Assembly (NCBI GenBank): GCA_002633005.1
Contig: NMRA01000522.1
Span: forward strand, 1 to 64,000
From: Phoronis australis
Lineage: Eukaryota; Animalia; Phoronida
Direction: 5' to 3'
Length of the DNA: 64,000 bases
The notes below the pieces were generated by a model. The model was not told the origin of the DNA and did no database searches. It saw only the letters and a list, made by a program, of their open reading frames with translations. How positions within the stretch are numbered: the stretch's first letter is position 1; each line of letters begins with the position of its first letter. This document shows positions 4,601-63,034 of this stretch, in pieces. The translations under genes were made by a program, and so were the position numbers.

Positions 4601-6424
4601 GAATCGTTAACGACTTTNGATCTTATTTCCTCTTCTGTGCGGTCCCGGGACATCTGGCATTGAAGTTTCCAGCGTTCATCTGCTTACGAACGTCAAACAA
4701 AGACCCAGACATGTTGGTATTCATAATATGATAACAAACAGTGAGTGAGTGGCTTGGGCTTTTTTAAAATGTATCTTAAAAACATCATATTTCACTAATC
4801 CACTGTTTTGTGCATTTTTGGGTTATATTTTCGAAAATATCCATCGTTCAGATTTACTCAAACACGCGCTCCAGGGGTAGCTTGAACAATGTATCAAAAT
4901 GTCCCAGGGTCGATCAAGCTTTGTAAGGCCAAAGCAATAAAATACAGAGAGATAATTGCAGATGCTGGGTTCTTAGCATTTTACGTGAACAACCTCTTTG
5001 AAAACATCTGTGCACATCAAAGTTGGGTGCAAAACATAACAATTTATTTCAATTGAAACTGAATTAATAAACAATGCAATGTATTTTTATGTCATCTAGA
5101 GTAACTGTAAGCACTGTAGTTGATTTGTGTGGTCTTATACTTCGTGTATTTCCGTCTAAACGAAACGGTCTCAACTTTAGGGCCTCATTCAAAATGGCCA
5201 GCGATATCAGCGACTGTTTCAAAACTCTGCTTACGGAGACAAACAAGGATTAAGATTGTCAAAACACGTATATTTGAGAAGGCTGATATATATCCATGAC
5301 ATCACATGAGCAGTTGGTAACGGACATTGGGTAGTATGACAATCAGCTGCTTATTATGCTTAATATTCACGACTTAAGGTCACGGGTGTGTATAGCCCCC
5401 CGGCTGGCTATAGATAGAGGGCCTACAATTATACTAATTACTCCCATTGCTGTAGTGGGGCGTAGACACACGTAGGTGCAGCCAACCACCTTTTGGCATT
5501 TGAACATAGCGCCTACGCACTGTAAGTTATGCTCAGTGTTCAAGATGATACGGGGGGGGGGCTCTGGGTGCCTATTTACCTCTAATTTTACCACTACAGC
5601 ACATACTGATTACTTCCCACCATTTTTTGTACTAGTTTCATCCCATGTACTTTAAAAGGGCGGTAGCCCAAATCTGCTCACTGAATAAGAGATTTTCACC
5701 CCGTCAAAAATACATTTTACACTTCAAATTACCGCTTACTTACTTCAGCGATCCTTTCTGGTTCTATACATATCTGGTGCGATAACCACAAAGTATTTCA
5801 ACGGATGTCACATGAGTTAGGCAAGCTATAGACAAGCGCGAGACTAAGCGAACCGCGTGTCCTGGCATGTGACACTTGCAAAAAATGGCATGGGAAGATA
5901 TCAGGTGGAATTTGTAAGATTTGTGTTCCTTGGACTTTTTGTTCATCAACACATGTGATTTCAAGTAACTTCCTCAAAATGGCACCCAGTGAGAGAAACT
6001 CGAGCGAACCACGACAGATTTTCATGGATATGTTCCAGTTTCTGCCTCGAGTTCTAAATATTTGTAGAGACAGAAATAATAGTTGAGACTGGAAATTTTC
6101 ACGATTTCTAATAATAGTTGAGACAGGGATATTAGTATAGACCGGATGTTTTGTTCACTAGAAAAGTAGAATAATAGTATAGACCGGAAATTTACAGAAA
6201 ATTTAATACCCAGTATTAGTGTAGAATGGAATAATGGTACAGACGGCAAATTTGTTGAAATTTAGAAATAGCATAGACTGGAATAAAAATCTTGATTACA
6301 GATTTGCTTAAAATCTAGTAATGATATAGATGGGAATAATAGTACAAAGCAGCAAATTCTGGGGAAGAGTGGCCGTATAAACGGCAAATTTGTGGAAATT
6401 GAAAAATAGTATAAACTGGAATAA

Positions 6425-7130
6425 ATGAAGAAAGCAACAATGTGGGATTAAAGATACACAAGGACAAGACAAAGTACATGACAAATTTGGAAAGAGATGA
6501 ACAATTAATGGTGGAGAACAAGATCATTGAAAAAGTCACACAATATAAATACCTGGGGCAATATACAAATGGGGAACCGTATGACCAATGAAATACAAAT
6601 CCGAATAAGAGCTGGATGAAGTTGCTTTGGAAAAAACAGAGAAATATTCCAAGATAAGAACATACCCATATCCCTGAAAAGAAAAGTATTTGACCAGTGC
6701 ATCATCCCCACAATCACCTATGGATGCCAAACATGGACCTTAACAAAACAGACAATTGCCAAGCTAAGAACAACACAGAGAGCAATGGAGAGAAAAATGC
6801 TTGGAATAAAGTTACTAGACAGGATTCCACACACAGAGATAAGAGAACAAACAAGAGTCATGGACATAATCAAGACAATTCTGAAATTGAAATGGAGGTG
6901 GCTAGAGCACAGGACAACAGATGGACAAAAAGATGTACAGAGTGGCAACCCTGATATGGAAAGAGATCAAGAGGACGGCCCCAAGCCAGATCGAGAGATG
7001 ACATCATGAAAACGATAGGCACAACATGGATGAGAGCAGCAAGAGACAGAACAAGTTGGAAGGCATTGTTGGAGGGCTACTTCCTGCAGTGGATAGACAA
7101 CACCTAGATGACACGAGATGAGATGATGAG
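6425..7130 (+). mobile_element. 5'-truncated, decayed RTE-clade LINE (end of RT/thumb region and C-terminus of the ORF)
   Basis: Broken translation: GLKIHKDKTKYM..KYLG..RIRAG..LKRKVFDQCIIPTITYGCQTW..QRAMERKMLG..LKWRW..DNRWTKRCTEWQP..RSRGRP. GATGA-type tail. Candidate 14-bp TSD ATAAACTGGAATAA (6411-6424) / ATAGACTGGAATAA (7131-7144). Confidence 0.9.
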
Positions 7131-17652: not shown

Positions 17653-17785
17653 ATGGCCGAGGAAACCATATATTTATGTAATTTCCGTGTCTCTGTTGAT
17701 GGTGAATGGCTGTGCTTGCGCGAGTTGGCTGATATGCACATTGAAGTCCCTGCTATGGCTATTACGTCACCCATGTCTGAAGATG
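17653..17785 (+). CDS. RUFY2: RUFY-family (RUN and FYVE domain protein) coding exon 1: MAEETIYLCNFRVSVDGEWLCLRELADMHIEVPAMAITSPMSED(G)
   Basis: ATG at 17653 with an in-frame TAA upstream (17632). The peptide matches the recalled RUFY3 N-terminus (ETIYLCKFRVSMDGEWLCLREL). Donor G|GTAAGT at 17786 is phase 1 and joins exon 2 in frame. Confidence 0.9.
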
Positions 17786-18009
17786 GTAAGTTAAATGTCA
17801 TGTGGATGACACTTGATGTCAAAATATGAAGAAATGTGGCACATGGGTGACACTTGGCACCAAGTGTTAATGGCAGTTTCCTTGTTGAAGGTCACAGATC
17901 TTTCAATCTATAAAAAATGAAAACAACAGTGGTGGTCTGAACAAGTTGTGAATATGTCAACTGCTTCAAATATTTAACTGTGGTGACACTTTTCAGTTGT
18001 GATATTTTT

Positions 18010-46098: not shown

Positions 46099-46266
46099 GA
46101 TGTTGAAAAGGAGCTACAGCTACAGATAAGTATGAAGGCTGAGATTGAGATGGCCATGAGACTACTTGAGAAAGATATCCATGAGAAGCAAGACTCTATT
46201 GTCTCACTACGTAAGCAGCTGGACGATGTAAAGAAGATCAATATTGAAATGTACCAGAAGTTACAG
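46099..46266 (+). CDS. RUFY2: RUFY exon 10: [56 protein letters not shown]
   Basis: Acceptor ccacag and donor CAG|GTATAC, 168 nt, phase 0-0. Contains the [11 protein letters not shown] and [10 protein letters not shown] motifs of RUFY2. Confidence 0.97.
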
Positions 46267-47416
46267 GTATACTGTGAGAGTTTGTTAGTAGATTATAGCT
46301 AGAGGTGTAACTAATACACCTTTTGGCTGGAGCAACAGTCTGTTATTGTACTGCCTAAGGGGTTCTTACATGGTTAGCACATGTGTACCATTCTGCTCTG
46401 TTGGCTCTTCTTTTTTCACAGCCAGGTTGCCTACAAAACTTCAGCTGCTATTGAATTTCCTATGAAAGGGTTTATTTTATTGGTTGGAAGGTTCATATTT
46501 GCTATTTAACACCACAGAAACATTTCAGGTCTATAGTCCAATTGCTCTATTGTTATTTCAATTATTAAAAACATATTGTAGGATTTAAAACCCCTACAAA
46601 AAATTATGTTATGAGAAAATCTACAAGGGGTGACATTTTCATAGGAGCTCCCAATAAATGTGTCCGTTTGAGGTGTGCTCTTTAAAAGCATGTGGTTTAC
46701 CTTATTGACTCCTTAAAATATAGATACACTAATTCCCCAGTTGCATTATCCTGTTCAAAATATAGTGGGGTACCCTCAAGATTACCAGTTGTGAGACAGT
46801 TGTGCATTTTAACTTTGTTCCATGTGGTAATTTTGAAATTTATTCTTCCATGTTTGCACAAAGATATTTCTGCTTCTGTATGATCAGTGCAGACAAACAA
46901 GCTGAAGCCAATCTGGTAAGAGTACTACTACAACTTCAACTGATATTATATCACACTATATTAAACAATATGCCAAAACCTCTAATTTCAATTTTGTTTG
47001 TGATTGAAACACTGGAGAAACCTACAAATATACTTAATGTTATGCTTCATAGTAAAATATCCCGTTTTTTTCATGAATTGTAAAAATATTCTTCATTCTC
47101 CATTAAACTCATTTAAAGTAGCCTACATACTGTCATGAATTATTGTGGCATTCCTGGATATTGTCATTAAAAAATCACCAAAACTTATTCTCACCTGCTT
47201 ATTAGCATATGTACCTTAAATTTGCTTTGTTATCTAAACAGCCTACCTAATTCATCTTCAATTCATGTGTCGTATGTGAACTGGACATCTGGGTGAAAAT
47301 GGGTCGTTTCCTGTTTAGTTGTCTAACACTTCTCTCCACTTAGCATGGTCAGCTTATAAGGGTAGTTATGGTCATCACCAAGTGGGAATCCATTTAAAGG
47401 AATATCATCTGTATTA

Positions 47417-50119
47417 CTGTAAACTCGTGTGTCGATGACCATGCCCATGTAATTGTCCATCCCCGACTTTTGGTCAATTTTCGGTTTTAAGCACCCACTG
47501 CTTGAGTAATCACCCATCCCCTACTTTGTGCAAATTTCCCCTAAGCATCCACTGCTTGAGTATTCTCCCGTCCCCTACTTTGTTCACATTTCCCCTAAAC
47601 GCCCACCTTTCAGGTAATCCCCCATCCCCTACTTTGTTCACATTTCCCCTAAGCGCCCACCTCTCAGGTAATCGCCCATCCCCTACTTCGTTCACATTTC
47701 CCCTAAGCGCCCACCTCTCAGGTAATCACTCATCCCCAACTTACTGCTTACAGAACTTGAGCTTGAACTCAGTGGCTTTGTTCACAGCTTCGCCTCAGAC
47801 TCACACTTCCGTGTTTGCAGAAACACGGCGTGCTTATACCTGCGTACAATTGTTTCGAAAAGTGCGTTTTCAGCCAGAATTTGTTTAATAACTCAAGCGC
47901 TGCAAATACCTTTTTTTACACTAATCAACTTATCGTTTGTTAAATTAATATAGGCCTACTCCGTAGATTTTTATAGAAGTGGCGCTAGTCTACTACGAGA
48001 TTAGTCATTGTTCAGAGATTAAATGTGGACGCCCCCTTGTGATGAAATGGCATATTTTTTGCGACAAGCTCATAAATTGATATTCATAGCCTACCAGAAT
48101 GTGCTCCCATTCGTGGAACCACAACAGTCTTGGGTCACGTGTTCCAAACACTCACCCCAGGAGATTTCTTTTAAAACGTACTGATTAAGTTAACGATTTG
48201 TCACCCTGATTTTGGAAAAAAGACAATTCCCACTTACAGCTTTCTATTACCGCCCCGGTATTTTGGTTGTTTGGTGAAAGAAAAAACATGTTAAAAATCC
48301 TTACAAGCAAAAACCCACTGGAGCATTCAGGAATGTCTTTTTAACAAACTAACTTGATGGCGACCGCGGAGCTGGTATTTCGCTTTTTTCTCTGCCCTCA
48401 TCCTTGCATTGCGTCGGTAAACCCACGGTGAGAAATAATAATCTGGATCAGACTGTGAAGTTATTCGCACGTTGAAGTTGAAGGAAAACTTACATTTGAG
48501 GCCACAGGTAGGAAGGGACTGCGTGTGGATCTGCCACCTAGAGGAAGGCAAACCTTAAGATGCAAACGGTGTCAAAGTCCGTAATTGTGGCGGATGGGGG
48601 GGGACTGTTGGACACGTTCCGAGAGGACTGTGCAAATTATTTCATTCACGTAGTATGACAGAAACTCGTGCTGTGTTCTTGGGCAACACGGCGCCGCAAG
48701 ACATGGGCGGGGTGGAACCATTAGCTAGACGCAGCTAACTTTATGAAGTTTCGTGTTCAAAGGGATTTTGTTCAAATTTCACACAACATCAAATAATATG
48801 TTGACATTGACATGATATACATGTGGTTCTTTAGAGTTAGATCTTTATTTCTACACTGTTTGAAACTTGAAAGTTGATGCAAATTGTTTTATGTAAAACT
48901 GCATTCATGTTCGGATATTGTGCCCTGTGAATAGATGTTGAACAGTGTTACTGGTATTTGTATTTATGTAACGCGTCTTTCCTTTTTAGTGTACTTAATT
49001 GCCATAACAGTACATGGTGGTATTACGAACCTTAGGTCTAACAACCATGAGAAAACAGTGTTTAATGTAGGTATCCTTATTATGAAATAGAAATCAAAAC
49101 AGTTACGCTCTATGTTATGGCATACGGGACTATGCAGTCATTGGAATTTTTACAGTGGGGCTTCGGAAAGCACCTGATAGAAGCCTACTTACGACGTCCT
49201 GTTCGTCACCAAGGTAGGATTGTCTAGGTGACAAATTTTCAAATTACCTCATCTGAATTTATTTTTTGTATCAGGCACCATTTTCAATGCTTATTCGAGT
49301 TCAGTAGACCAACAAGTTTTTAGTGTTTGGCGAGAACAGGAGAAAAACTTCAAGACATCGCCATGTATTTTCAGACGATGCACGTGATTTTGCTAGTTTT
49401 CTCCTGAGTTGACCGAGATTTGAATTGAACCCCCTCTTGTTGTAGTTGCTTTTGTAGAGCACGTGAGATTTATCTCGTGGGTCAACCCAGATTTAAATTG
49501 AGCAATTATTCACACAACCCTCTCGTCGTATAATTGCAAACGGTTTGTGTCAGCCGGGAACGAATTGTTTGTGTTTTTAATCCAGTGCCAGATAAACTAA
49601 TCAGTGAATGGAAAGTTTATCGGGTTTAATACACAGGTGACATTAACAACGAGGAGACGGGAGTGTAAGAGTTCTAACCAAATACAGTCGTACGAACAAC
49701 ACTAACAATACAATGGCGCAGGTAATGAAATATAGTCCCGTTCACTGATTTGAAATAGTACTTACTGATACGGTAAGTGGACAGTCATTCAAGCTTCATA
49801 AAGCTACTTGGTATGACATTTTGCAACGTCTTAATATTTTTGAAAACATCTGAGTTTTTAACAAAGTTCTCTTGAAACCATCCTTTCAAAGTGAAAATCC
49901 TATTTCTGTTTGAGCCGTGAGAAACTTTGTGGTTGTCGGGCTCCGCTGATAAACTGAACTCAGGAGCTCCGTGCTCGAATGAAAGCCGAAAGCCCCGCGT
50001 GCTTGCCCAGTTCGGTTGAAACTTGGACGTAAGCGCCCACCTCTTGGGTAATCGCCCACTCCCCTGCCAAAAGTTTTCCCCAATTTAAGCGCCCAGGGCG
50101 TTAACCCACAAGTTTACGG
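47417..50119. mobile_element. Larger (~2.7 kb) degenerate TIR element of the same CCGTA-ended type
   Basis: Ends CTGTAAACTCGTG / CACAAGTTTACGG. Subterminal ~57-bp repeats with TAAGCGCCCAC at 47480-47740. It splits a unit of the 110-bp tandem repeat. Confidence 0.65.
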
Positions 50120-50124
50120 TTTGT

Positions 50125-50575
50125 ATCATAATTTGCATCAACACCAAGAGTATGATATTAAGCCTAGTATACTTATAAGAGTGGTTATGGTCATGGCCTA
50201 GTGGGAACCCACTTGAAGGATTATCACGTTTAGTGTCATAATTTGCATCAACACCAAGAGAATGATATTAAGCCTAGTATACTTATAAGAGTGGTTATGG
50301 TCATGGCCTGGTGGGAACCCACTTGAAGGATTATCATGTTTAGTGTCATAATTTACATCAACACCAAGAGTATGATATTATAAGAGTGGTTATGGTCATG
50401 GCCTGGTGGGAACCCACTTGAAGGATTATCACGTTTAGTGTCATAATTTGCATCACACCAAGAGAATGATATTAAGCCTAGTATACTTATAAGAGTGGTT
50501 ATGCCCATGGCCTGGTGGGAACCCACTTGAAGGATTATCACGTTTAGTGTCATAGTTTACATCAACACCAAGAGT
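50125..50575. repeat. Tandem repeat, ~110-bp unit, ~4 copies
   Basis: tcataatttgcatcaacaccaagag...gtgggaacccacttgaaggattatca repeated. Confidence 0.92.
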
Positions 50576-50736
50576 ACACTTCAGTGTACTGATTTTCAGG
50601 CGTTAATTTTCTTTAAGTTGAGCACTAGATCTAAAGATCTAACTTGAAAATGTGTTTGCTGTAAACCCCAGGCCTGTAACTGCACCAGGGTTGTTCAGAG
50701 CATGATTCCTATGGAGATAAAAATAAGTGGAAACTT

Positions 50737-50948
50737 ACTAAGCATTGTACAGGGCTACTGACTAAGCATTGTACAGGGCTACTGACTAAGCATTGTACAG
50801 GGCTACTGACTAAGCATTGTACAGGGCTACTGACTAAGCATTGTACAGGGCTACTGACTAAGCATTGTACAGGGCTACTGACTAAGCATTGTACAGAGCT
50901 ACTGACTAAGCATTGTACAGGGCTACTGACTAAGCATTGTACAGGGCT
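50737..50948. repeat. Minisatellite, 24-bp unit, ~9 copies
   Basis: Unit actaagcattgtacagggctactg. Confidence 0.95.
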
Positions 50949-52840
50949 TAACTGCCTGTAACCATAGGAGAGTGTAATCAAAAGTTGACTATTCAGTATT
51001 TCTTGTATGCAGCCAAGTGAGAAGGTGGAAAGCATGCCTTGTTTTCTGACAGATAATTAAAAAATACCATGTCACAGCACACTCAGTTCTCAGAAATCCA
51101 AGCCTGTCTCAAAATCTTGTTCAGTCTAGGGACAGGTTTAAAAGGTCAACTTGGCAAAAACTATTTTATTTGTATAAATATTTGGTGCCTTCCAAACATA
51201 AAATTTATAACGTTTTTCCCAAATACAATACCTTTGGTTCATTTGTTATATTTATTTTGTGGAATTGGTACGTCTACCACCCTCACTACTCATCTGACTG
51301 TGCTTTATTTACAATATGATGTAAACAGACTCGAGTCAGAATTGTTTGGCAAAAATCAGCAGAACAAATGCACAAACATTTTTTTGTTTATTTTCTCCTT
51401 AGGTAAGAGCTGATTGGGAAAGTTGTCATAATGCCCACAATTTATCCCCATTTTCACGTTCAATTACAGAAACAAAAAAATTTGAAAATAGATGTGGTAG
51501 ACTGTGGCCCTTCAAGCCCTTTCGCAGTTCCAGCTGACCCACTTTTTCATTTTCATATGACAACCAAGTTTTAATCAAACCCGTCCCTGGGGTTTGTGGA
51601 GGCCAGGTCGCACTTCCACAAGTTGTTGCTAAGCTAAGCGTTGGGCCCTACAGTACCAAACATGTTTGCAGGTGTTCTGGCAATATATCTATGAATTTTA
51701 CACTGTAATTCAGATATTTTTATGACTTTTTATTGTTGATCCACTAAAAGTAATCAAGCGTAATCAGGTAAACATCGGAACCAACGTTTGAAAATTACTT
51801 TCTTAAAATAGACGCCTTTGGTGTATGAACCTCATTTGCTTTTTTGCCGTGGCAACCATTAGATTACAAAAACAAGAAATTGAGCAGTTCGTAGTGTGAT
51901 GTTTCTACGTTTCCTTGAGTCGTCAAGCTACGTGAGAGGTTACATCCAGTGATTGCCTTGGTTGTGGCACTCAGTCGACTTGGTTTATGGTGTTGATCAT
52001 TGCATGCGAATATGAACAGCGTTGACGTTTGTATTCAGTAGAAATGGTTTGCTCTAAGGCTTATGGAAAATCCAGGCATGCGTTGGCAATAACGGACCTG
52101 CAACTGCCTTAGTTGGGACATTTATAAAACTGATGCCTGGCTCTGCCCCTGTTAATACTGTTGTGTAGTTGTGAAGTATTCAAATTCACGATAACATGCC
52201 AGTGCCTCTCTATGAGTTTTGCTGTAACTTTATTGCAATAGAAAAGTATTCTCGAACAACATCAATCAGTTTATTCGAATCTAATCATAATTAAAAATTA
52301 GCAGCCACTAATCAAGCATTGCCTTGCACCTAATTCCTTTTAGAAGTAATTAATAAGTTGTTAGTGTAAATTAGAAAAGAAATCATTAGACAATCATTAA
52401 AATCCGATTCAGGCTAATAACTAGTCATTTACTCTTTGAGAGTATAATGCTGAAATTGTTGAGACTTGCAATAAATACACCACCTGTTCAATTAGCTCCA
52501 TTTGTACATTAGACATCAAAAGTTAAGTTCCATTTGCTGTGGACGTAACATGACTTGCCTTTTACCACAAAGAATTTAAAGGAGGAAATGTTGTAATTGG
52601 TGCAGTAACTTTGTCATTTAATAGCTTTTTCTTTGCTTAACTTTCTGAAACAATCTGGAGATGATTGACAAAGTAAACAGTTCAACAATTAGAGTAATTG
52701 TTTATGCAACCTTTCGTTTGCATTGTATTAAAAGTGAAAAGTTTTAACAAGCTCTCTGGTGGTCACGTAACATTCATAAATGCATACATGATGTGTCATC
52801 TTAATTTTCTAACTTCGCAGAAACAGATTCCTCTGAGCAC

Positions 52841-53350
52841 ATTGCCACATGAACTACATGTGATTTGCAGATTACTACATAAACTACATGTAATCTGCAG
52901 ATTGCCACATAAACTATATGTGATTTGTAGATTACTACATAAACTACATGTAATCTGTAGATTGCCACATAAACTACATGTGATCTGCAGATTACTACAT
53001 AAACTACATGTAATCTGCAGATTGCCACATAAACTACATGTAATCTGCAGATTGCCACATAAACTACATGTAATCTGTAGATTGCCACATAAACTACATG
53101 TAATCTGTAGATTGCCACATAAACTTTATGTGATCTGCAGATTACTACATAAACTACATGTGATCTGCAGATTACTACATAAACTACATGTAATCTGTAG
53201 ATTGCCACATAAACTATATGTGATCTGCAGATTACTACATAAACTACATGTAATCTGTAGATTGCCACATAAACTATATGTGATCTGCAGATTACTACAT
53301 AAACTACATGTAATCTGTAGATTGCCACATAAACTACATGTGATCTGCGA
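52841..53350. repeat. Minisatellite, 30-bp unit, ~17 copies
   Basis: Unit att(gc/ac)(c/t)acataaactacatgt(a/g)atctg(c/t)ag. It explains the 237-aa and 175-aa ORFs. Confidence 0.96.
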
Positions 53351-54420
53351 AGACTCTCACGTCATTTCCAACCAATGCACACCAACTCCTGCCTTTATTT
53401 TTTATCTTTGATGGTATCCCTTGATCAATTTTCCTGGGCGAAGTCACTCGACAACTTGGAAGCCATCTCCTGAGAACAATTAATGAACATAGCTCAATTA
53501 TTTTGTCATTTTAGTTTTGTGAGTATGTACTTTGTTTTGTTGCCAACCATATTTATGGATATTTGCTGATTTTTGTGGTTGCAACCCAATATGAAATTAC
53601 ATTTTGTGACCATGAACAATGTGGTAGATATCACAAACCAAAAATCAGATGTTTATATAAAAATTTGATATTTCACACCTGCTATATACCTGCTTTTTGT
53701 CAGTAACACTAGGTGGAGGTACTACTTGATACACGGAGTATATGGCTTTTGACATATGTGATGGGGAGCCACATCAACACTTCTCATTGAGCTTGGTCTT
53801 AGTCAGTAAAGAATGGTCAATTCTTCTCAAGCTGAGAAATTGCGTATAATATAAGAAGGGAACAAGTTGAGACTAAGTTTATAATTATACAGAAAACTTT
53901 CCAACAAAAAGTTGTTTACCGGTACCTGTATAAAGTAGGTGCGAAGCAGTTTTACACGGTGACAGTTGTCATGGAGCAGCTGATTGCGCGTGTGTGTAAA
54001 CACTTCTCATACAGAGCAAGTTGACACCGCTGCGACCATTTTGACACCAATTTCAGAGGTAGAGCGAGTTGCACTCGATCAGTTAGAGTTTCAACTACAC
54101 GACTGTCTAAACACAATTGGGGCAGGGTGGAAGGGGATCATCTTTCAATGCATTTGTGCAATTGCGTATATATGGGTGATTTACTGACAATCCACATGGT
54201 TTGGACGTTTGCTAATTGTTAATGCGAGCATGTGCAGACAGTCTTCGTGTAAACGACTCATGCTGATCCAGTTTGCCATCTAATGTCCTGTAAATCCTAC
54301 TTAAGTGGAATAACTCACATTGCGACAACTGTTCCCATTGTAAAAACAACTTTACAAACAATTACTTGATTGTCTGGTCTTGGTCAATTAAATAGAAGTA
54401 CACTTACAAAATATGAGGTG

Positions 54421-54552
54421 TCAGTTTGGCCTTGGTGATTTAAATGAAAACACACTTACAAACAATGACTTGTCTGTTTGCTCTTGGTTATTTGAAAACC
54501 TGTCTTGGCCTCTTCTGGCACATCCTGAAATTTCCAGCCTTTGTAATTGAAA
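54421..54552 (-). CDS. Neuropeptide precursor second coding exon: FQLQRLEISGCARRGQDRFSNNQEQTDKSLF (then VSVFSFKSPRPN-stop, or a splice at 54460)
   Basis: Strong acceptor tttgtttgtttcag, phase 0 and open. It supplies the 'xxRxxxxC' second cysteine typical of the precursor-related peptide. In-frame stop at 54421-54423, with an in-phase GTAAGT donor at 54459. Confidence 0.72.
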   Translation of the reverse strand, partial: FQLQRLEISGCARRGQDRFSNNQEQTDKSLFVSVFSFKSPRPN

Positions 54553-56051
54553 CTGAAACAAACAAAGTGAGTAGTTTGTTGAACAGATAGCATTTTGTTT
54601 TTCTATGTTGTTATAAAGTTGCATTCAATGCACTTTCGCTATAATTATTTACGAACTTGGTGTCATTTTTAGTAAAGGTTTTGCTATTTCTGCCAAAAGA
54701 TCTATGGATAGCTCTTTCATTGCAGTGATATATGTGGCATGGTGGCAATACAGTGAGAGAGCACATGAAAACACTACAAACTAAACTTCTAGTTACGATA
54801 TTTATATTTCCTTTTTCTTCGGAACACCTTTTCCTACCATGAGAAGAGGGTCAAAGCTTATGGAAGAACACATAAAATGACATAATAGGAACCACAAGCA
54901 TTGAAGTGCACAGTTGTGACCACAAGTGAATTGCCTTTACTAACTTATAAAAACATTTCACTGTTATTTTTGGTAGATTTTTTTAATTTGAAAAACGTTA
55001 ATTTCACTCCAGGTTTTTGCTACGTTTGTTGGATTATAGTGCTACATCAAATTTTACAATGATGTCATACACAGACTTGTTGATAACGTCCTAAATAACA
55101 TTTAAGCCGTTAAAACATAAAACTGACATTGTGTAAATAAATGAAATTACTTAATGCTTGGCAAATGTGGTGGATGTTGTTTGCAAGTTTACAGCAGCTG
55201 AGCAGATTGTCTACAGTTTACAGCAGCTCAGCAGATTGTCTACGCTGCATTTTTGGTTATTTCAAATAACAAAACAAGCTTTGTTCACATATGTGTGAGG
55301 AGTGACAAGTTATTTCATAGCACATATGCTGTTTGGGGAAAAACTTCCACATGATTTCACATTGTTTGAAAGATTTCATAGCGTCTACCGGATTGGTGGT
55401 CCGGTGTTAAGAATTTGAAAGTGTTTTGGGTTTGCCACGAGGCCATGTTTAATTCGTCAAGTCACATTTGCTGTCATCCACATATGTTCCACTTGTTTGT
55501 ATGTTAATTTACGTTGGAGTGTAGCAAAGAAACTTAATATTTGTGAATTGTTGTGTAAGTGTATGTTTTCTCTTTATTTTGTTTGTTCAAAATCATCTCA
55601 AGCTCATTGTGTAGTTGGCTACATACTTTTACCCACTAGGGGTCAGTTTTCATTGTTCCTTCTCCTTATATCCTCGTGTATCGCTAGTGTCCCAAGGACT
55701 TTTTAAAACCATCTTTCATGCTGAAACCATGCTTGGCTGTATTATCTTGATCAACATGTTGGAAATATCAAAAATTGATTTGTAAAATTATGTGTATTGG
55801 AGAATCCAAAAGTGATGTAGCTTGAGAACAATTCAATGCATCATTGATAACCTGGGTTTGTAGCTTCAAATTGATGTTTAACATGTTAAAACAATGTATT
55901 GTGGCTACACTTAGAGAATATTGAGAAAATCTGTGGGCAAAAATGAGGATGTCCAAAGCATTTGGAAAAATTTTTGAAGAGCAATTCTGAGAATAATTTT
56001 TGTTTGAAATTGATGAAATTTTAAAGTTATCAGTTAAGAACATAATATCAC

Positions 56052-56231
56052 CTGCACAAAATTAATAAGCAGTCTCCTCATGGATGTCCTCATCACTCTA
56101 CATTGTTGTTGTGCCTGAGTTCGTTTGCCTGGGGGATGCCACCCTTTGCTGAACTGCACCTGTTGAGCCTCAGTGACCAGGAGGATGACCAGCAAAGTGG
56201 CTAAGATCTTGATGGTGTCTGGGTACTGCAT
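56052..56231 (-). CDS. GnRH/AKH/corazonin-superfamily neuropeptide precursor, first coding exon: MQYPDTIKILATLLVILLVTEA-QQVQFSKGWHPP-G-KR-TQAQQQCRVMRTSMRRLLINFVQ
   Basis: A hydrophobic signal peptide ending T-E-A is followed directly by a Gln-initiated peptide with the FSxGW core and a G-KR amidation/cleavage signal. Acceptor ttcctag is just upstream (exon starts 56243). Donor CAG|GTGATA is at 56051, phase 0. Confidence 0.92.
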
Positions 56232-59200
56232 TTGTACAGAGGCCTAGGAAGAGTTTATAGGGAATAGTGTAGAAATTGATCAACTCGCTGTTTTGTACGA
56301 GACAAAATGGTTTCAGTGATATCCTATTATTTTTCAAACAGTAGTAGAAGTAGTATGGTAAATGTTCTCCAGTTTGGAAAGTCTTGGCACACTGAAATTC
56401 TAGCTAAAATTGAGTTTTCGTGATTCTGAAGATTGGAATGTGAACGATTTGGCATTCATCATATATTACAAATATTGGACAATGTCTTTTGGGTGAACAG
56501 AGTCTGTTAATGTACTTTATTTTTGGCTGCTTTTAAAGCCATTGAAAATAGCCGCTTTGAATTTGAGAAGCCCAACATTGCCATTCTAAAATTCGGTATA
56601 AGTTCCGACCTCGAGCAAAATAATTTTTTAACAATCCCAAACTGGATGATTTCTGCCATAATAATGTTGGTAATAACGTTAGCAAGAGAATTTTTTTTCT
56701 TAAAAACCATAAAAGTTCAATCTTTTCATGAAAAAGCAGAAATTTTGAAAACACTTCCTCATAGTGTTTTGGAAAAGAATACAAGCATGTGTGAGATATG
56801 ATATTCTGAAGTTACTAAGTTTGAACATTTTTCTGGGGTCCAACGTAATCTCTAAGACCAAAAGTTTTGTGAAACAGCCCTGTAGTTACTTCCTCTAAGG
56901 TTCTGAACATCTTTAGAAAGTTCGTATAATTAGTTCAAAGAACCTCTGCTGAGTGCTCACATATTGACAAAGTGTCACATATCTTACACAACCTGGGTGA
57001 TAGATACTAATTAGACAGATAATATGGCCATTCTTAGTCTCATTAGTACCAGATTCTCTGTATGGACTTCTGCAGATGTTGGTGTTGGCGTACTTTTACG
57101 TTTTAATTGAAAAACATTGTAACCATCTCTGTCAATAGTGGCGAATCATTTATTATTTTTAACGATAAATTCTATGAAATGAAAAGTTGAATCACTGGAA
57201 TATATTGTCTGAGGAAGAAGTTTTAACCATGTGGTTTTATCTCCAATTTGTAGTGCTATCTCAGGAAGTTTTAATTATCTGGTATTATCTCGGTTACCCA
57301 TTTTCTTGGTTGCCCAGACATAGTGTTTATCCGGTTTTTCTATGTGCAGCAGCACCACATACCCATGGTAAAGACCCCCTTCAGGTTGAACCTTATAGTT
57401 TTAACTAGAACTTCCTGTTCTCTGCTTCAAAATGACATTGAATATGCTTTAGTGAGAGTTTATTGCTTTTACCTCCAAACAAACAAAGCTATTGTGAAGT
57501 TTTTAACTTAAAAACAACCAATTATTTGGTTGTTTGTTGTTCAATCCGCACTTTCTTACTTGATTTAGGCTTTGATTAATTAAAAGGAGCCATCTGTTTG
57601 TGCTGGGATAGCTCATGTATGGGAAATCCCTGCTGAAGAGGCCTGAGGGTTCTACACTATTTTTGTCAAAGGAGGGCAGATGAGAAATTAGGATACTCAA
57701 CTTCTTAAGGATTTGACATTATAAAAGGTACCTTCTTAGAGGAAACTTCTGTGTCAAAAGCAAAGTGCTTGTTTGTCAGTACCCCCAAGCACTTTCTCCG
57801 GGCATTGTAAAATTTTTGCAATTATGATAGATTATAGTGTAAAGTATGAAAAACGTGATATAGTAGGCAAAACTCATCAATTATGAATTTTTGGATAAAG
57901 TAAAATGATGTGAAAAGTGTGTGCTCCTTAAATGATAACTTAATGATGACTACTGAGAGGTGACTGCTTGCTCATCGGATTACTTGCTTCCATTCAAGTC
58001 TATTCTAACTGCATCACAACTCTTCCTCTTCCACTAACTCTTCTTTGACAGTGACACCATATTGTGTGATTGGTTTCTTGTCACAACCGTTAGAGCTTGC
58101 CTATCTGAGTGAAGTTATTGTTTCTCATTGTTAAGGAGTTGCTCAACTCAGAAAATGGTTCATTGTTATGGTAACTTTAGCGCGAAATTTCAAATTAGTT
58201 TGTCATGAAATAGACTTGGTCATTTTCAAACCTACAGGTTTAAAGCACATAGCTGATATAAATCTTGGGGAAAGTCTTGCTGGTTATGGAGTGATCTGAA
58301 CCGTTCCATTGAATATGAAGTAACTGTAGATACTTAAGTGTGACAAAGTTTAGTTTACAGTTAATACCGTCATTCTAAAGTCAATGCTTTGTATTTGGTT
58401 CTTGGTTGATAGTACTTTTAAAACAACACTGGGTGACTTTTCATACGATATTGCAAAAGGCTTTAGTTTTAACTGTACTGCGGTATCTCCAGCATTTTTG
58501 TAATATCCCAGTTCCTTCATTTTCACCTGCTGCCAATCTTTTTTAATTAGTCTTCATGTTTCCAGAACCCCTCTCACCTGTTGTGACAATATCATATAGT
58601 ATTCTGATGAAGTTACTTCAGTTTGGAACGCAATAGAGTGGACCAGTGAAATTGTATTTTGTAGCATATTTTCAACAAAAATAAGCATTTATAAAACTTA
58701 AACTTATGAAAGACCCTAGAAAAATGTTCAAATTTGGCTAAATTTGGAACATCATATTTCAGAAATGGGAGCTCAGATTCATATGAAACCTGCAGATATA
58801 CTTCATGCTCAGTTCTCCAAAACGCATCAAGGGCTATGAAGAACGGGACTTTTATGATTTTCATGAAAAGTCGATTAGGTTGCTTAAAACGAAAACGGAA
58901 GGATATTTTAGAATACTGTATCAACGTTTTTGTTATCTTGAACATACATACGAAATAAAATTTGATCATGTTATTTATTCTGTTCTTTTGCTATCAATGT
59001 GCCTTTCTTTTTTGCTAAAATTTATTTATAAGACATGATCACGTGACCAATTACTGGCGGGATGGTAAAAAGTAAAAAATCAAATTGTACAGGCTTTCTA
59101 CATTAAGAAAATATGTGCCGAGTTAAAATCTCTGGTTATTTGCCTAAATACACAGACTTTTTACTTATGCCTTGCATAACTTTAACTTGCGCAGTTTACA

Positions 59201-59324
59201 TTCTACAGTTAGCAACTAAAGTAGGATGGAATGCTGTGCATTTTCAACAATGGAATGAGCTTTGAAAAGTGAAAAATAGCACTGTTGGCCATTATTTTTA
59301 TTCAATTAAATCAGTTTTTGGCCA

Positions 59325-59418
59325 CAATAATATCAAAAACCGGACGATCGCCGCACAAATAAAAAAGTTCATGTTCAATTCAACGTTTCGTCTTTTCATT
59401 AGACATCATCAGGATCAT
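59325..59418 (-). mobile_element. Penelope-like LTR remnant with a minimal hammerhead ribozyme core
   Basis: Minus strand reads CTGATGA-T-GTCT-aatgaaa-AGAC-GAAAC-GTT. Stem II is intact and stem III is the palindrome AACGTT. Stem I pairs poorly. Confidence 0.45.
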
Positions 59419-59464
59419 ATTTAAATTTGAAGACACTTCACCATATACGTAAAAATCAACTCAC

Positions 59465-59563
59465 CTTCTTGCTTCTTAGTAATACCTGTACAAGTGAAAA
59501 ATTCAGTCAAAACTGTTTGATGTGTTATGTGTACCACCTTTTATTAGGAGACTAGCCAATCAC
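59465..59563 (-). promoter_or_regulatory. Candidate core promoter and ~50-nt non-coding first exon of the nested neuropeptide gene
   Basis: On the minus strand, TAATAAAA (59546-59539) lies ~32 nt upstream of an Inr-like ACAGTT (A at 59514), followed by donor AAG|GTGAGT at 59465/59464. AGCCAATCAC box at 59554-59563. Confidence 0.45.
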
Positions 59564-59971
59564 AAGCGTTGTCGTTGTGTGTTGGCGGATACAACTCTGC
59601 TTATACATTTCTCGTAGTCTGTAATTACCCTAATGTGGACCTAGTAATAATTGCCCTGATTTCAGGTGTATTTTTGTCTATTTAAAATTGGGGTGACACC
59701 ATCAAAGGGTGTGATGACTGTGCTCCTTAGAAGTAAATAACACCCGCTGTCACATCCGTTAATTAGCAAAAATTATAGCATAGAATTTGGTTTTGATTTA
59801 AGTTAGATTAGTTGACTTTTGTACGTCAAAGCATTAGCGTTGTATGAATTAATTAATGTGTTATACTTTATACTCGTTTTTACTATTTTTGATCATTTGC
59901 ATAAAATATTTCACAGATTTCTTTTTTCCTGAAAACAGAGCTTCAGGACAACCATGTATTATTGATATGTT

Positions 59972-59979
59972 TGACGTCA
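59972..59979. promoter_or_regulatory. Perfect CRE palindrome TGACGTCA ~460 bp upstream of the candidate neuropeptide TSS
   Basis: The sequence tttgacgtcaaa is seen directly. Function is inferred from position only. Confidence 0.3.
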
Positions 59980-61120
59980 AATTATTAAATGCATTTAGCA
60001 TATTGCACTTAACTTAATTAGTATGATAACTGTATATATTATCGGTAGTTGTGACAAGTTGACTTAAAACAAAGAAATACTGATGCAACAGTGCAGTACC
60101 TCTCATTAAATGTTCAAATATCACATCTCAGAAATGGCTAATTTGATTCATGCGAAACTTTCAAATACTCCGCTATGTGCGCTGTTCTCAAAATGTTTTT
60201 AGGAATTGTTAAAATCTGACTTTTATGATTTTTAAACTCAGAAGTTGCATAAAAGGAAAATAACAGTTTAGCGTTTTTTCAATTCAGATCTTTGGACAAA
60301 TATGACTGCCATGGCAACCCTGAAGGCTGTTTTAGTTTCCGACGAGACATTACTTGTGCATCACTTTTTTGGCAATTTTTATGAAACGTAGTACAGAGGA
60401 ACACAGTGGGAATGCACCAGCACCAGCACCAGCACCAGCACCAGTTGATTTTCAAACAAATTTGGTTGCGGTGGCACCCCTGTTGGTCCTCTTAGTTTTT
60501 GATAAGAAATTGTGGTTTTATTTTTGGAAAGAAATCTGGACGAAGTTTGCCAACTTGATGTAGAGGTATGTGGCAAGAATATGCCATCGCCAGTCAATTT
60601 TCAGGGTGATCTGACTTCCTGGTACCTCCTGTTGGCTGTTTTACTTTTTGATGACAAATTCATTTTCTACTTCATTTTTATATTCTTTTAGTTACATATT
60701 GTTTTAATGATTTGATAGATTTCGTTGAGTCTTGACACAATGGTTTATGGCTAGGATGCACTAACACCTGATTTTTGGACAATTTTACAATTGTATCACT
60801 GGTTGGCGGATTTGTTTTTGATGACAACATATTGCTTGTTGGTCAAGTACCGTCAAAAGAACTGAACAAATTTATGGAAAAATTGAACATCTGAGCCCTT
60901 GGGCGCTAGCTGCAAAATTATACGTCTACGAATGGGACTTACATGATTCTAACCTGATAGAGTTTGTTATAATGTGTGGCTGTTGGATTTACACTATGAC
61001 CTCATAGATACTCATAGTCTATGATGGCCTATGGTGCTAGTTTGGTTTCAACTAGAGTGTTGTAATAAAGTGTCTTTGATACTGAGTTTCCTCAGGTCTT
61101 ATATTTGTGTCTCATTTCAG

Positions 61121-61218
61121 ACGTGTGAAAGCTCACTAAAGCATAAAACAGAACTGGTTACCAAACTAGAGCAGAAGACTGTAGAAATGGCTTCCATGTT
61201 GAAAAATGTGGAAGAAAA
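61121..61218 (+). CDS. RUFY2: RUFY exon 11: TCESSLKHKTELVTKLEQKTVEMASMLKNVEE; gene continues past the window end
   Basis: Acceptor catttcag and donor GTAAGT, 98 nt, phase 0-2. Coiled coil collinear with recalled RUFY2 (LKEKNEIIARLEEKT). Confidence 0.9.
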
Positions 61219-63034
61219 GTAAGTTTTTCCTTTCAACTTTCTATGTTTTTGTTTTCTTAAAAAGGGTTTGTTTCATTGAACCTGCTTATTGAGGTTCACA
61301 CTACATTTGGATGTTTTATAACCTCTGTAAGCCTTCGAGTTAGTCTATTTAAATTGGTTTACTCTAAAACTTTGAGTGTGCTGTTAACGAGATATGGGTG
61401 CTTAAGTGTGAAATGTAAGAAACTAGTATAGAATGTTAATACTTGCATAGGCACTTGTCCTGGCATGGTGATGTAAATTGGAATTACACAGGGCCAAAGT
61501 TAAAAGAATAGGAGACTTTTCAAATTGGCGCTCTCTAGACTAATGAGAGCACAGATGTGATTTCGGATTGATCCTGATTGATTTGGTGGATAGAAATTCA
61601 ATTACTACATACTCAGTGGTTCATTAATTTAAAAACAGATGAATAAATTCCACTGTCAGTCCCTCCCATTGGTTGATTAGTTTAAGTTCAGTAATTTAAT
61701 GTTGCTTTTTGACATTGGCTGTGATGAAATTCTAGCATTTTATCAGCCGCAACCACTGACTTTGTCGTACGTGGATACGTCTTTGCAGTGGGAAATAGAT
61801 GGAACGTGATGTCCTTGTTCATCCGGTGACATTTCAAAAGATTATTCATAAGACATTTAGTAAATCCCTCTTCACAGCAATGGAAAACATTATAATGGCA
61901 GGAAAGATGTGAAAATGCTTATTATACCAGTAGGTTGAAATCTCCTGTCGGCATTACATTGGATTTGTAGGTTGTACTGAACACTTGTTCACCAAAGACC
62001 TGATGTTAACTGGCGAGTTAGTGAATTTCAATATGACACGGTTATTTCAAAAGTCAGCTATTAGTTACAACTTATTTATCATGGCATGTTGCCAACACGC
62101 AAGTGTTCGCTAACCAACATGTGTGTAAGTCACTAAGTGACTGGAGAAAATTGAAAAAATACCTATCAAAATTCTAGGACTGACCTGCCAAATAAATATC
62201 AAAGTCGTTGAAGATGCAAATCATTGAATTCTAAGCCTAAACCTCCTTTGTTCACAGTTTGCAAGGAATTAAAACATCTTATTACCATGTGTTACAAGGC
62301 AGTAGCTGTCATATTGATGTACTGTGATGGTGCAATGTATGTCACAAGTAAACACATTGATTTCATGAAACTTCATATTCAGTAATCAGCTGTGCATGAA
62401 ACAAAAGTCTCCAAATACATTAAATTTGTGTTGATTTCCACTAGAGGGCGTATCCTATCATTCTTTGTACGTGTACTTGTCATATGTGGATTGGGTCGTC
62501 CCAAATAGGTCATCTAGAAACATGGCAGCCACAAAAACATCATGTGACCTCTCCATGCTTGCTTGCTACTTAATTCTGAACATGTCACTACCTAGGCTGG
62601 GGCTTGGCTACTGAAACTGTAAGAAAAGGTAGATTCTTCATAAAATTAAATTTATTGCAGCACATAATGTTAGACCATGGCTGACAATGGTCTTGGTAAG
62701 TGCAAGCTAAACAACGCGACTACTTTTAAATAAATGTATTTCAGAAACTGCTAATAAGATGTTTCTGGATTCGTCTGTCCGACTAAGAATTGATCCAGTT
62801 TGCATTTAGAAAGCAGACTTTTACCAGTTTGCAATAATTGGTGAAAAACACTGCCGAGCTTAAATCAAACATTTTCAAAAGTAGGGAATGGGTACATGCA
62901 TTAGGCACTATATCCCATTGCCCAACTATGAATGCTTCTTAACAGTTGAAATTACAATAGCCACGACACACAATGCCTAGACTTTTATGTATAATAGCCA
63001 CAGGAGTAATGGATTTTGAGAACCAGTTTAGAGT

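Follow-up and report, generated by a model that had tools for sequence, protein, structure and literature searches.

The locus described here raises the question of whether a short hormone gene is expressed from the antisense strand of another gene's intron and, if so, which hormone it encodes and how old the arrangement is. It lies in a window of 64,000 nucleotides (positions 1 to 64,000, forward strand) of contig NMRA01000522.1 from the phoronid Phoronis australis (GenBank assembly GCA_002633005.1). A first-pass annotation, made from the letters alone, had proposed a neuropeptide gene of the GnRH/corazonin superfamily on the minus strand of a long intron of the gene for a RUN and FYVE domain protein (RUFY). 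We are highly confident that this is the phoronid corazonin gene, located on the minus strand inside RUFY intron 10, and that it encodes a 105-residue product which, by prediction, is secreted and processed to an amidated peptide. The hormone is already known and has been in print since 2021, so in this respect the locus adds nothing new. What is new is the four-exon structure and the antisense position in RUFY intron 10, which is a common kind of arrangement.

Structure and transcription of the corazonin gene

RNA evidence was taken from three raw-read runs and one contig run picked by their species label, and about one fifth of each raw run was read. The gene has four exons and extends from about 52200 to 59514 on the minus strand. 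Its features, with the evidence in brackets, are as follows.

59465..59514, minus strand: corazonin exon 1, non-coding (joint with 37-39 letters on the exon-1 side; sequence)
56052..56243, minus strand: corazonin exon 2, with ATG at 56231, predicted signal peptide at 56231-56166, predicted mature peptide at 56165-56130, Gly at 56129-56127, Lys-Arg at 56126-56121 and the first Cys (sequence, reads)
54460..54552, minus strand: corazonin exon 3, 31 codons, with the second Cys (reads, sequence)
52200..53469, minus strand: corazonin exon 4, 14 codons, stop codon and about 1.2 kb of 3' untranslated region (joint reads, depth to about 52200, match to the published C-terminus)
52837..53348, no strand assigned: 30-base tandem repeat, 17 copies, within the transcribed 3' untranslated region (sequence, reads)

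Two minus-strand joints had been predicted by the first-pass annotation, and both are present in all three raw-read runs: 59465>56243 in 6, 13 and 21 reads and 56052>54552 in 8, 29 and 37 reads. A third joint, 54460>53469, is carried by 10, 24 and 28 reads, likewise in 3/3 runs, and the first mates at all three joints lie on the plus strand without exception. The earlier exon 56243-56052 and splice site at 54552 are thus supported both by these reads and by canonical GT..AG sites (59464/56244 and 56051/54553). All three introns are GT..AG, and the two that interrupt the coding sequence are both in phase 0. In the contig run, one 470-base contig spans exons 2-4. A chance open reading frame was considered as an explanation and rejected because of the spliced reads.

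The non-coding first exon, previously a candidate, is confirmed by the joint reads. Reads of this exon reach about 59503; its start at 59514 is still the estimate of the first-pass annotation, and a TATA-like word is found about 30 bases upstream of it. The 3' part of the gene had to be revised. The lower bound of 54421 and the length of 96-103 residues given earlier came from reading into intron 3; exon 3 ends at 54460, the fourth exon, which starts at 53469 and supplies the C-terminus, had been missed, and the true length is 105 residues. A 103-residue read-through as the main form was rejected, since the depth over exon 3 is explained by the splice at 54460. In the X1 run, seven reads near 54224-54233 are possibly unspliced. 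The lower end of exon 4 is approximate, and AATAAA words are located at 52275 and 52234.

Repeats are found in and beside the transcribed regions. The tandem repeat at 52837-53348 carries several polymorphic letters. A multi-copy element at 59305-59423, just inside corazonin intron 1, collects many both-strand reads from other loci and has a fold-back joint at 59374/59423; a second such repeat is located at about 58700-59100.

The precursor and its predicted processing

Exon 2 (56243-56052, minus strand) contains a reading frame that starts at ATG 56231 with a hydrophobic leader, in which the 9-residue Kyte-Doolittle average peaks at 3.28. The hydrophobic core covers residues 9-19, and Thr-Glu-Ala precedes Gln23 (hydropathy and residue rule), so that the predicted signal peptide directly abuts the single peptide. 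The 12-mer QQVQFSKGWHPP is encoded at 56165-56130 on the minus strand and is followed by G-KR at 56129-56121. After splicing, the precursor is 105 residues long up to the stop codon at 53427-53425 and has cysteines at positions 44 and 71. The predicted signal peptide, the Gln-initiated 12-mer, GKR and the two cysteines of the earlier description are therefore all borne out in the sequence. The hallmarks of the superfamily are present: N-terminal Gln23, FSKGW (the aromatic-Ser-x-x-Trp core) and Gly35-Lys36-Arg37. A peptide-GKR pattern matches one place in all six frames of the window, while 100 dimer shuffles gave 0.01 matches on average; this serves as a sanity check only, the pattern having been written after the peptide was seen. 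Coding alleles are seen in the reads at 56197-56196, 56119-56118, 56098 and 54494 and alter residues 12, 38, 45 and 80 (Ser/Leu at residue 80); among the differences listed, none is in the mature peptide.

Neuropeptide precursors are generally processed by signal cleavage, a convertase cut at a dibasic site, amidation from glycine and cyclisation of glutamine. Following this standard route, the signal peptide would be cleaved after Ala22, a convertase would cut at Lys36-Arg37, Gly35 would provide the amide, and Gln23 would be cyclised to pyroglutamate (pGlu). The secreted product would be pGlu-QVQFSKGWHPP-NH2, together with an associated peptide that contains Cys44 and Cys71. By analogy with known corazonins, the amidated peptide likely acts via a corazonin-type G-protein-coupled receptor, and corazonin receptors have been reported in phoronids (PMC8557429). 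Analogy with the annelid Platynereis suggests that it may be released from brain neurons and tie growth and sexual maturation to the feeding state.

Identity with the published precursor

Compared by eye, the spliced product agrees at 104/105 residues with the P. australis corazonin precursor TRINITY_DN207679_c0_g28_i1 in the supplement of Thiel et al. (2021, PMC8557429). The single difference is Leu for Ser80, which corresponds to the polymorphic position 54494 (allele in 8/8, 28/29 and 20/38 reads). The locus is the same gene as the published P. australis corazonin. In the same source, the P. ijimai precursor has an identical peptide and that of P. psammophila differs by two changes, and both keep G-KR and both cysteines. 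Neither the exon structure nor the genomic position of the published P. australis precursor was found in the parts of PMC8557429 covered here.

The host gene RUFY

The host intron and its flanking exons are as follows.

46267..61120, plus strand: RUFY intron 10, host of the corazonin gene, 14,854 bases, GT..AG, phase 0 (joint reads and one contig; numbering by tblastn)
46099..46266, plus strand: RUFY exon 10, coiled coil, ending ...MYQKLQ (most matches, to named RUN and FYVE domain proteins, at 70-82% identity; reads)
61121..61220, plus strand: RUFY exon 11, beginning TCESSLKHK (tblastn; reads, contig)

Eleven RUFY exons, from 17653 to 61220, were located by tblastn with named RUFY proteins, and the host intron is therefore intron 10. 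It is the longest RUFY intron in the window. Matches to named RUFY proteins cover the RUN and coiled-coil exons, and the FYVE exons lie beyond the window. The joint 46266>61121 is carried by 10, 12 and 6 reads in 3/3 raw-read runs with first mates on the minus strand, the orientation opposite to that of the corazonin joints, and one 3,013-base contig of the contig run bridges exons 10-11 and continues past exon 11. The whole corazonin gene sits within one spliced RUFY intron on the opposite strand. Spliced reads and opposite mate orientation thus uphold the earlier proposal of a real hormone gene antisense in intron 46267-61120. Splicing takes the whole locus out of the RUFY pre-mRNA within a single intron, so that no sequence is common to the two mature mRNAs; the polymerase that transcribes RUFY would have to traverse the corazonin locus.

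As to novelty, the first-pass annotation was only partly right: the hormone is not new, and the nested locus is undescribed as far as text searches go. A corazonin or GnRH gene nested in RUFY was not found in the literature text searched, figures and subscription journals being outside reach. Roch et al. (2014) described synteny of GnRH/AKH-type genes with vasotocin, and RUFY is absent from the main text of that paper as accessible.

Some other features of the host gene and the window were observed. Possible alternative first coding exons of RUFY are located on the plus strand at 17653-17790 (MAEETIYLC type) and at 2403-2477, the latter being a weak match (E 0.3-4) to the other N-terminus in Lingula, Lineus and Owenia isoforms. 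Below the corazonin gene, RUFY intron 10 contains tandem arrays at 47488-47742 (54 bases), 50119-50576 (about 100-204) and 50733-50948 (24), and the scattered reads found at 47472-47512 and at 50108 seem to come from repeats. Broken frames at 6415-7006 on the plus strand resemble the end of a retrotransposon reverse transcriptase; Pfam RVT_1 gave a weak match (E 0.012) for 6415-6588 and none for 6620-7006.

Age of the nesting

We consider it fairly probable that the corazonin gene already lay in this RUFY intron, in antisense orientation, in the ancestor that phoronids, annelids and molluscs have in common, and that it has stayed there for more than 500 million years. The arrangement may be common to snails and annelid worms. 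The RUFY annotation of the snail Candidula unifasciata consists of two partial proteins from a single contig: CAG5132021 ends exactly at exon 10, CAG5132023 starts exactly at exon 11, and there is one accession between them. Among 219 proteins examined, 12 multi-exon RUFY records from eight lophotrochozoan species (Capitella, Ridgeia, Biomphalaria glabrata, Bulinus, Candidula, Batillaria, Tegillarca and Crassostrea angulata) end at most 12 residues from the exon 10 boundary, versus 6 that end elsewhere downstream. Exon 10 was the first query, so earlier breaks are under-sampled in this count, and 12 single-exon frames from unnamed assemblies, which end there by construction, were set aside.

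Several points limit this reading or weigh against it. RUFY models would break in the same way at an assembly gap or a long intron, or if a short isoform really exists. Lingula corazonin (XP_013384764) and Lingula RUFY (XP_013394068/078) are some 9,300 accession numbers apart, which gives no support for an ancient nesting. A scan of metagenomes with RUFY exon 10 gave 14 loci with an intron at the same position; in the 6 where the next exon was placeable it measures about 200-570 bases, and a corazonin-like pattern was found in none of the 14, none of them shown to be lophotrochozoan.

The Lingula and metagenome results speak for the alternative that the nesting is recent and restricted to phoronids, or that it was produced by an assembly join. 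We regard this alternative as possible but rather doubtful. Reads join RUFY exons 10 and 11 across the locus, and no run of N occurs in the stretch. Lingula has a second RUFY copy, with 640/642 residues the same, on another scaffold and in a later accession series, so that accession distance does not decide. The metagenome loci may lie outside the lophotrochozoans, and in Candidula a single accession separates the two RUFY halves. An ancestral nesting is preferred here.

Other searches bear on the same subject. Relatives of the exon-2 product were not found in word-index and full HMMER protein searches. The published precursor bears a transcript-assembly identifier; the gene may have escaped automated annotation, as the first-pass annotation had suggested. 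The JGI identifiers of Capitella do not follow scaffold order and so give no placement of RUFY (90707) relative to corazonin (219016). For the accessions adjoining RUFY of Capitella, oysters, scallops, octopus, abalone, limpet, mussel and Biomphalaria, no relevant mention was found in the accessible literature or Thiel supplement. The RUFY records of planorbid snails in two genera terminate in the same two residues after exon 10, and may represent a real short isoform without FYVE.

Is the nesting functional?

Nested genes can persist for a long time without any function. The corazonin nesting is most likely old and passively kept rather than a regulatory device, since it could hardly be undone without harm to the host gene. 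The alternative is that transcription of corazonin and RUFY interferes or is co-regulated in neurosecretory cells. The head-on layout inside an actively spliced intron, the hints that the same arrangement is kept in other lophotrochozoans and the joint counts, which move oppositely in one of the three runs (RUFY 10/12/6, corazonin 8/29/37), are in line with this idea, but we consider it unlikely. The exons of the two genes do not overlap, no RUFY short form linked to the minus strand was seen among the joints, and the three runs are bulk samples with no tissue labels, silent on single cells. Passive retention accounts for a long-lasting nesting with no function needed.

Corazonin or a GnRH/AKH-type ligand

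The first-pass annotation had placed the gene in the GnRH/corazonin superfamily, and this assignment holds and can be narrowed. On its sequence, the family is corazonin and not GnRH/AKH/ACP. Given cleavage after Ala22, the peptide has the corazonin register: 12 residues, two extra after pGlu, with Phe5, Ser6, Gly8 and Trp9. The AKH/ACP/GnRH register (8-11 residues, aromatic at 4, Trp at 8) appears only if cleavage occurs one residue later.

Some results do not favour corazonin. Pfam Corazonin (PF17308) did not match the exon-2 or exon-3 product, scanned as single exons. Pfam Adipokinetic hormone gave sub-threshold matches (E 0.029 and 0.0064, 15-17 bits versus a cut-off of 22.9). In the Atlas embedding, vertebrate GnRH clusters scored highest (0.92), ahead of pro-corazonin and an AKH cluster (0.89 each), and recognition stayed below the threshold; the Atlas cluster that bears the Corazonin family is arthropod. 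Cleavage one residue later would yield QVQFSKGW..., which is like the ACP-type Nasonia peptide QVTFSKGWGP.

Intron count was rejected as a subfamily test because Tian et al. (2016, PMC4923880) is self-contradictory: the text assigns two introns to deuterostome corazonin, the Fig. S9 legend one, and text and legend give opposite intron numbers for the deuterostome corazonin and GnRH precursor genes. Li et al. (2016) described a common intron in both AKH and corazonin genes, so that this intron does not separate the subfamilies.

Signal peptidase favours small residues at -3 and -1, and Thr-Glu-Ala fits this rule better than Glu-Ala-Gln. Thus, despite the weak Pfam AKH match, the GnRH clusters at the top of the Atlas list, the likeness of QVQFSKGW to ACP/AKH peptides and one Platynereis peptide that crosses receptor classes, it is very improbable that signal peptidase cuts after Gln23 and the resulting 11-mer acts on a GnRH-type receptor as a functionally GnRH/AKH-type ligand: the 12-mer register matches corazonins, all three Phoronis precursors read Ala-Gln-Gln at the cleavage region, three Phoronis species have a separate gene for a GnRH-2-type peptide, and specialists class the precursor as corazonin (PMC8557429).

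Significance

The exon structure of the gene and its place within RUFY intron 10 are of use in themselves. If the nesting is ancestral, it would provide an orthology test that is independent of short peptides in a family with confused naming, and a fixed place to seek corazonin in new spiralian genomes, including genes that have been missed. It would be an undescribed microsyntenic marker that separates true corazonin from GnRH/AKH genes in lophotrochozoans, and would explain why lophotrochozoan RUFY gene models frequently break at intron 10. It would also be a warning that knock-outs or deletions at the corazonin locus fall within an intron of a membrane-trafficking gene.

Comparison with known systems

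Intron-nested antisense genes in animals are typically small, have a promoter of their own and sit in a long intron of a widely expressed host gene, on its other strand. The corazonin/RUFY pair resembles them in layout.

The predicted Phoronis peptide resembles known corazonin-type peptides (Sakai et al. 2017, PMC5592718). As aligned here, it shares the register Q4-F5-S6-K7-G8-W9 with centipede corazonin, pQTFQYSKGWEP-amide, and F5-S6-x-G8-W9-H10-P11 with the octopus 'GnRH', pQNYHFSNGWHPG-amide, which is of corazonin type. Common to all three are the pGlu start, an aromatic residue at 5, Ser at 6, Gly at 8, Trp at 9 and the amide. The Phoronis peptide has Gln-Val-Gln at positions 2-4, whereas octopus has Asn-Tyr-His, and it ends in Pro-Pro-amide. 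The intron in the associated peptide is at a matching place: in Pinctada and Tubulanus, forms that read through the intron break at the corresponding position of the alignment.

The corazonin-type CRZ1/GnRHL1 of Platynereis dumerilii (PMC6969523) has, like the Phoronis gene, a non-coding first exon, the peptide on exon 2 and two cysteines in the associated peptide. The orthologous Platynereis peptide is produced by neurons of the brain and activates CrzR, as a calcium assay showed; its level goes up with feeding and maturity, and in CRZ1 knockouts growth and maturation are delayed. Receptor activation and a knockout phenotype are thus established in Platynereis, where the accessible account names no host gene, whereas the Phoronis gene is known from its sequence and reads and lies within RUFY.

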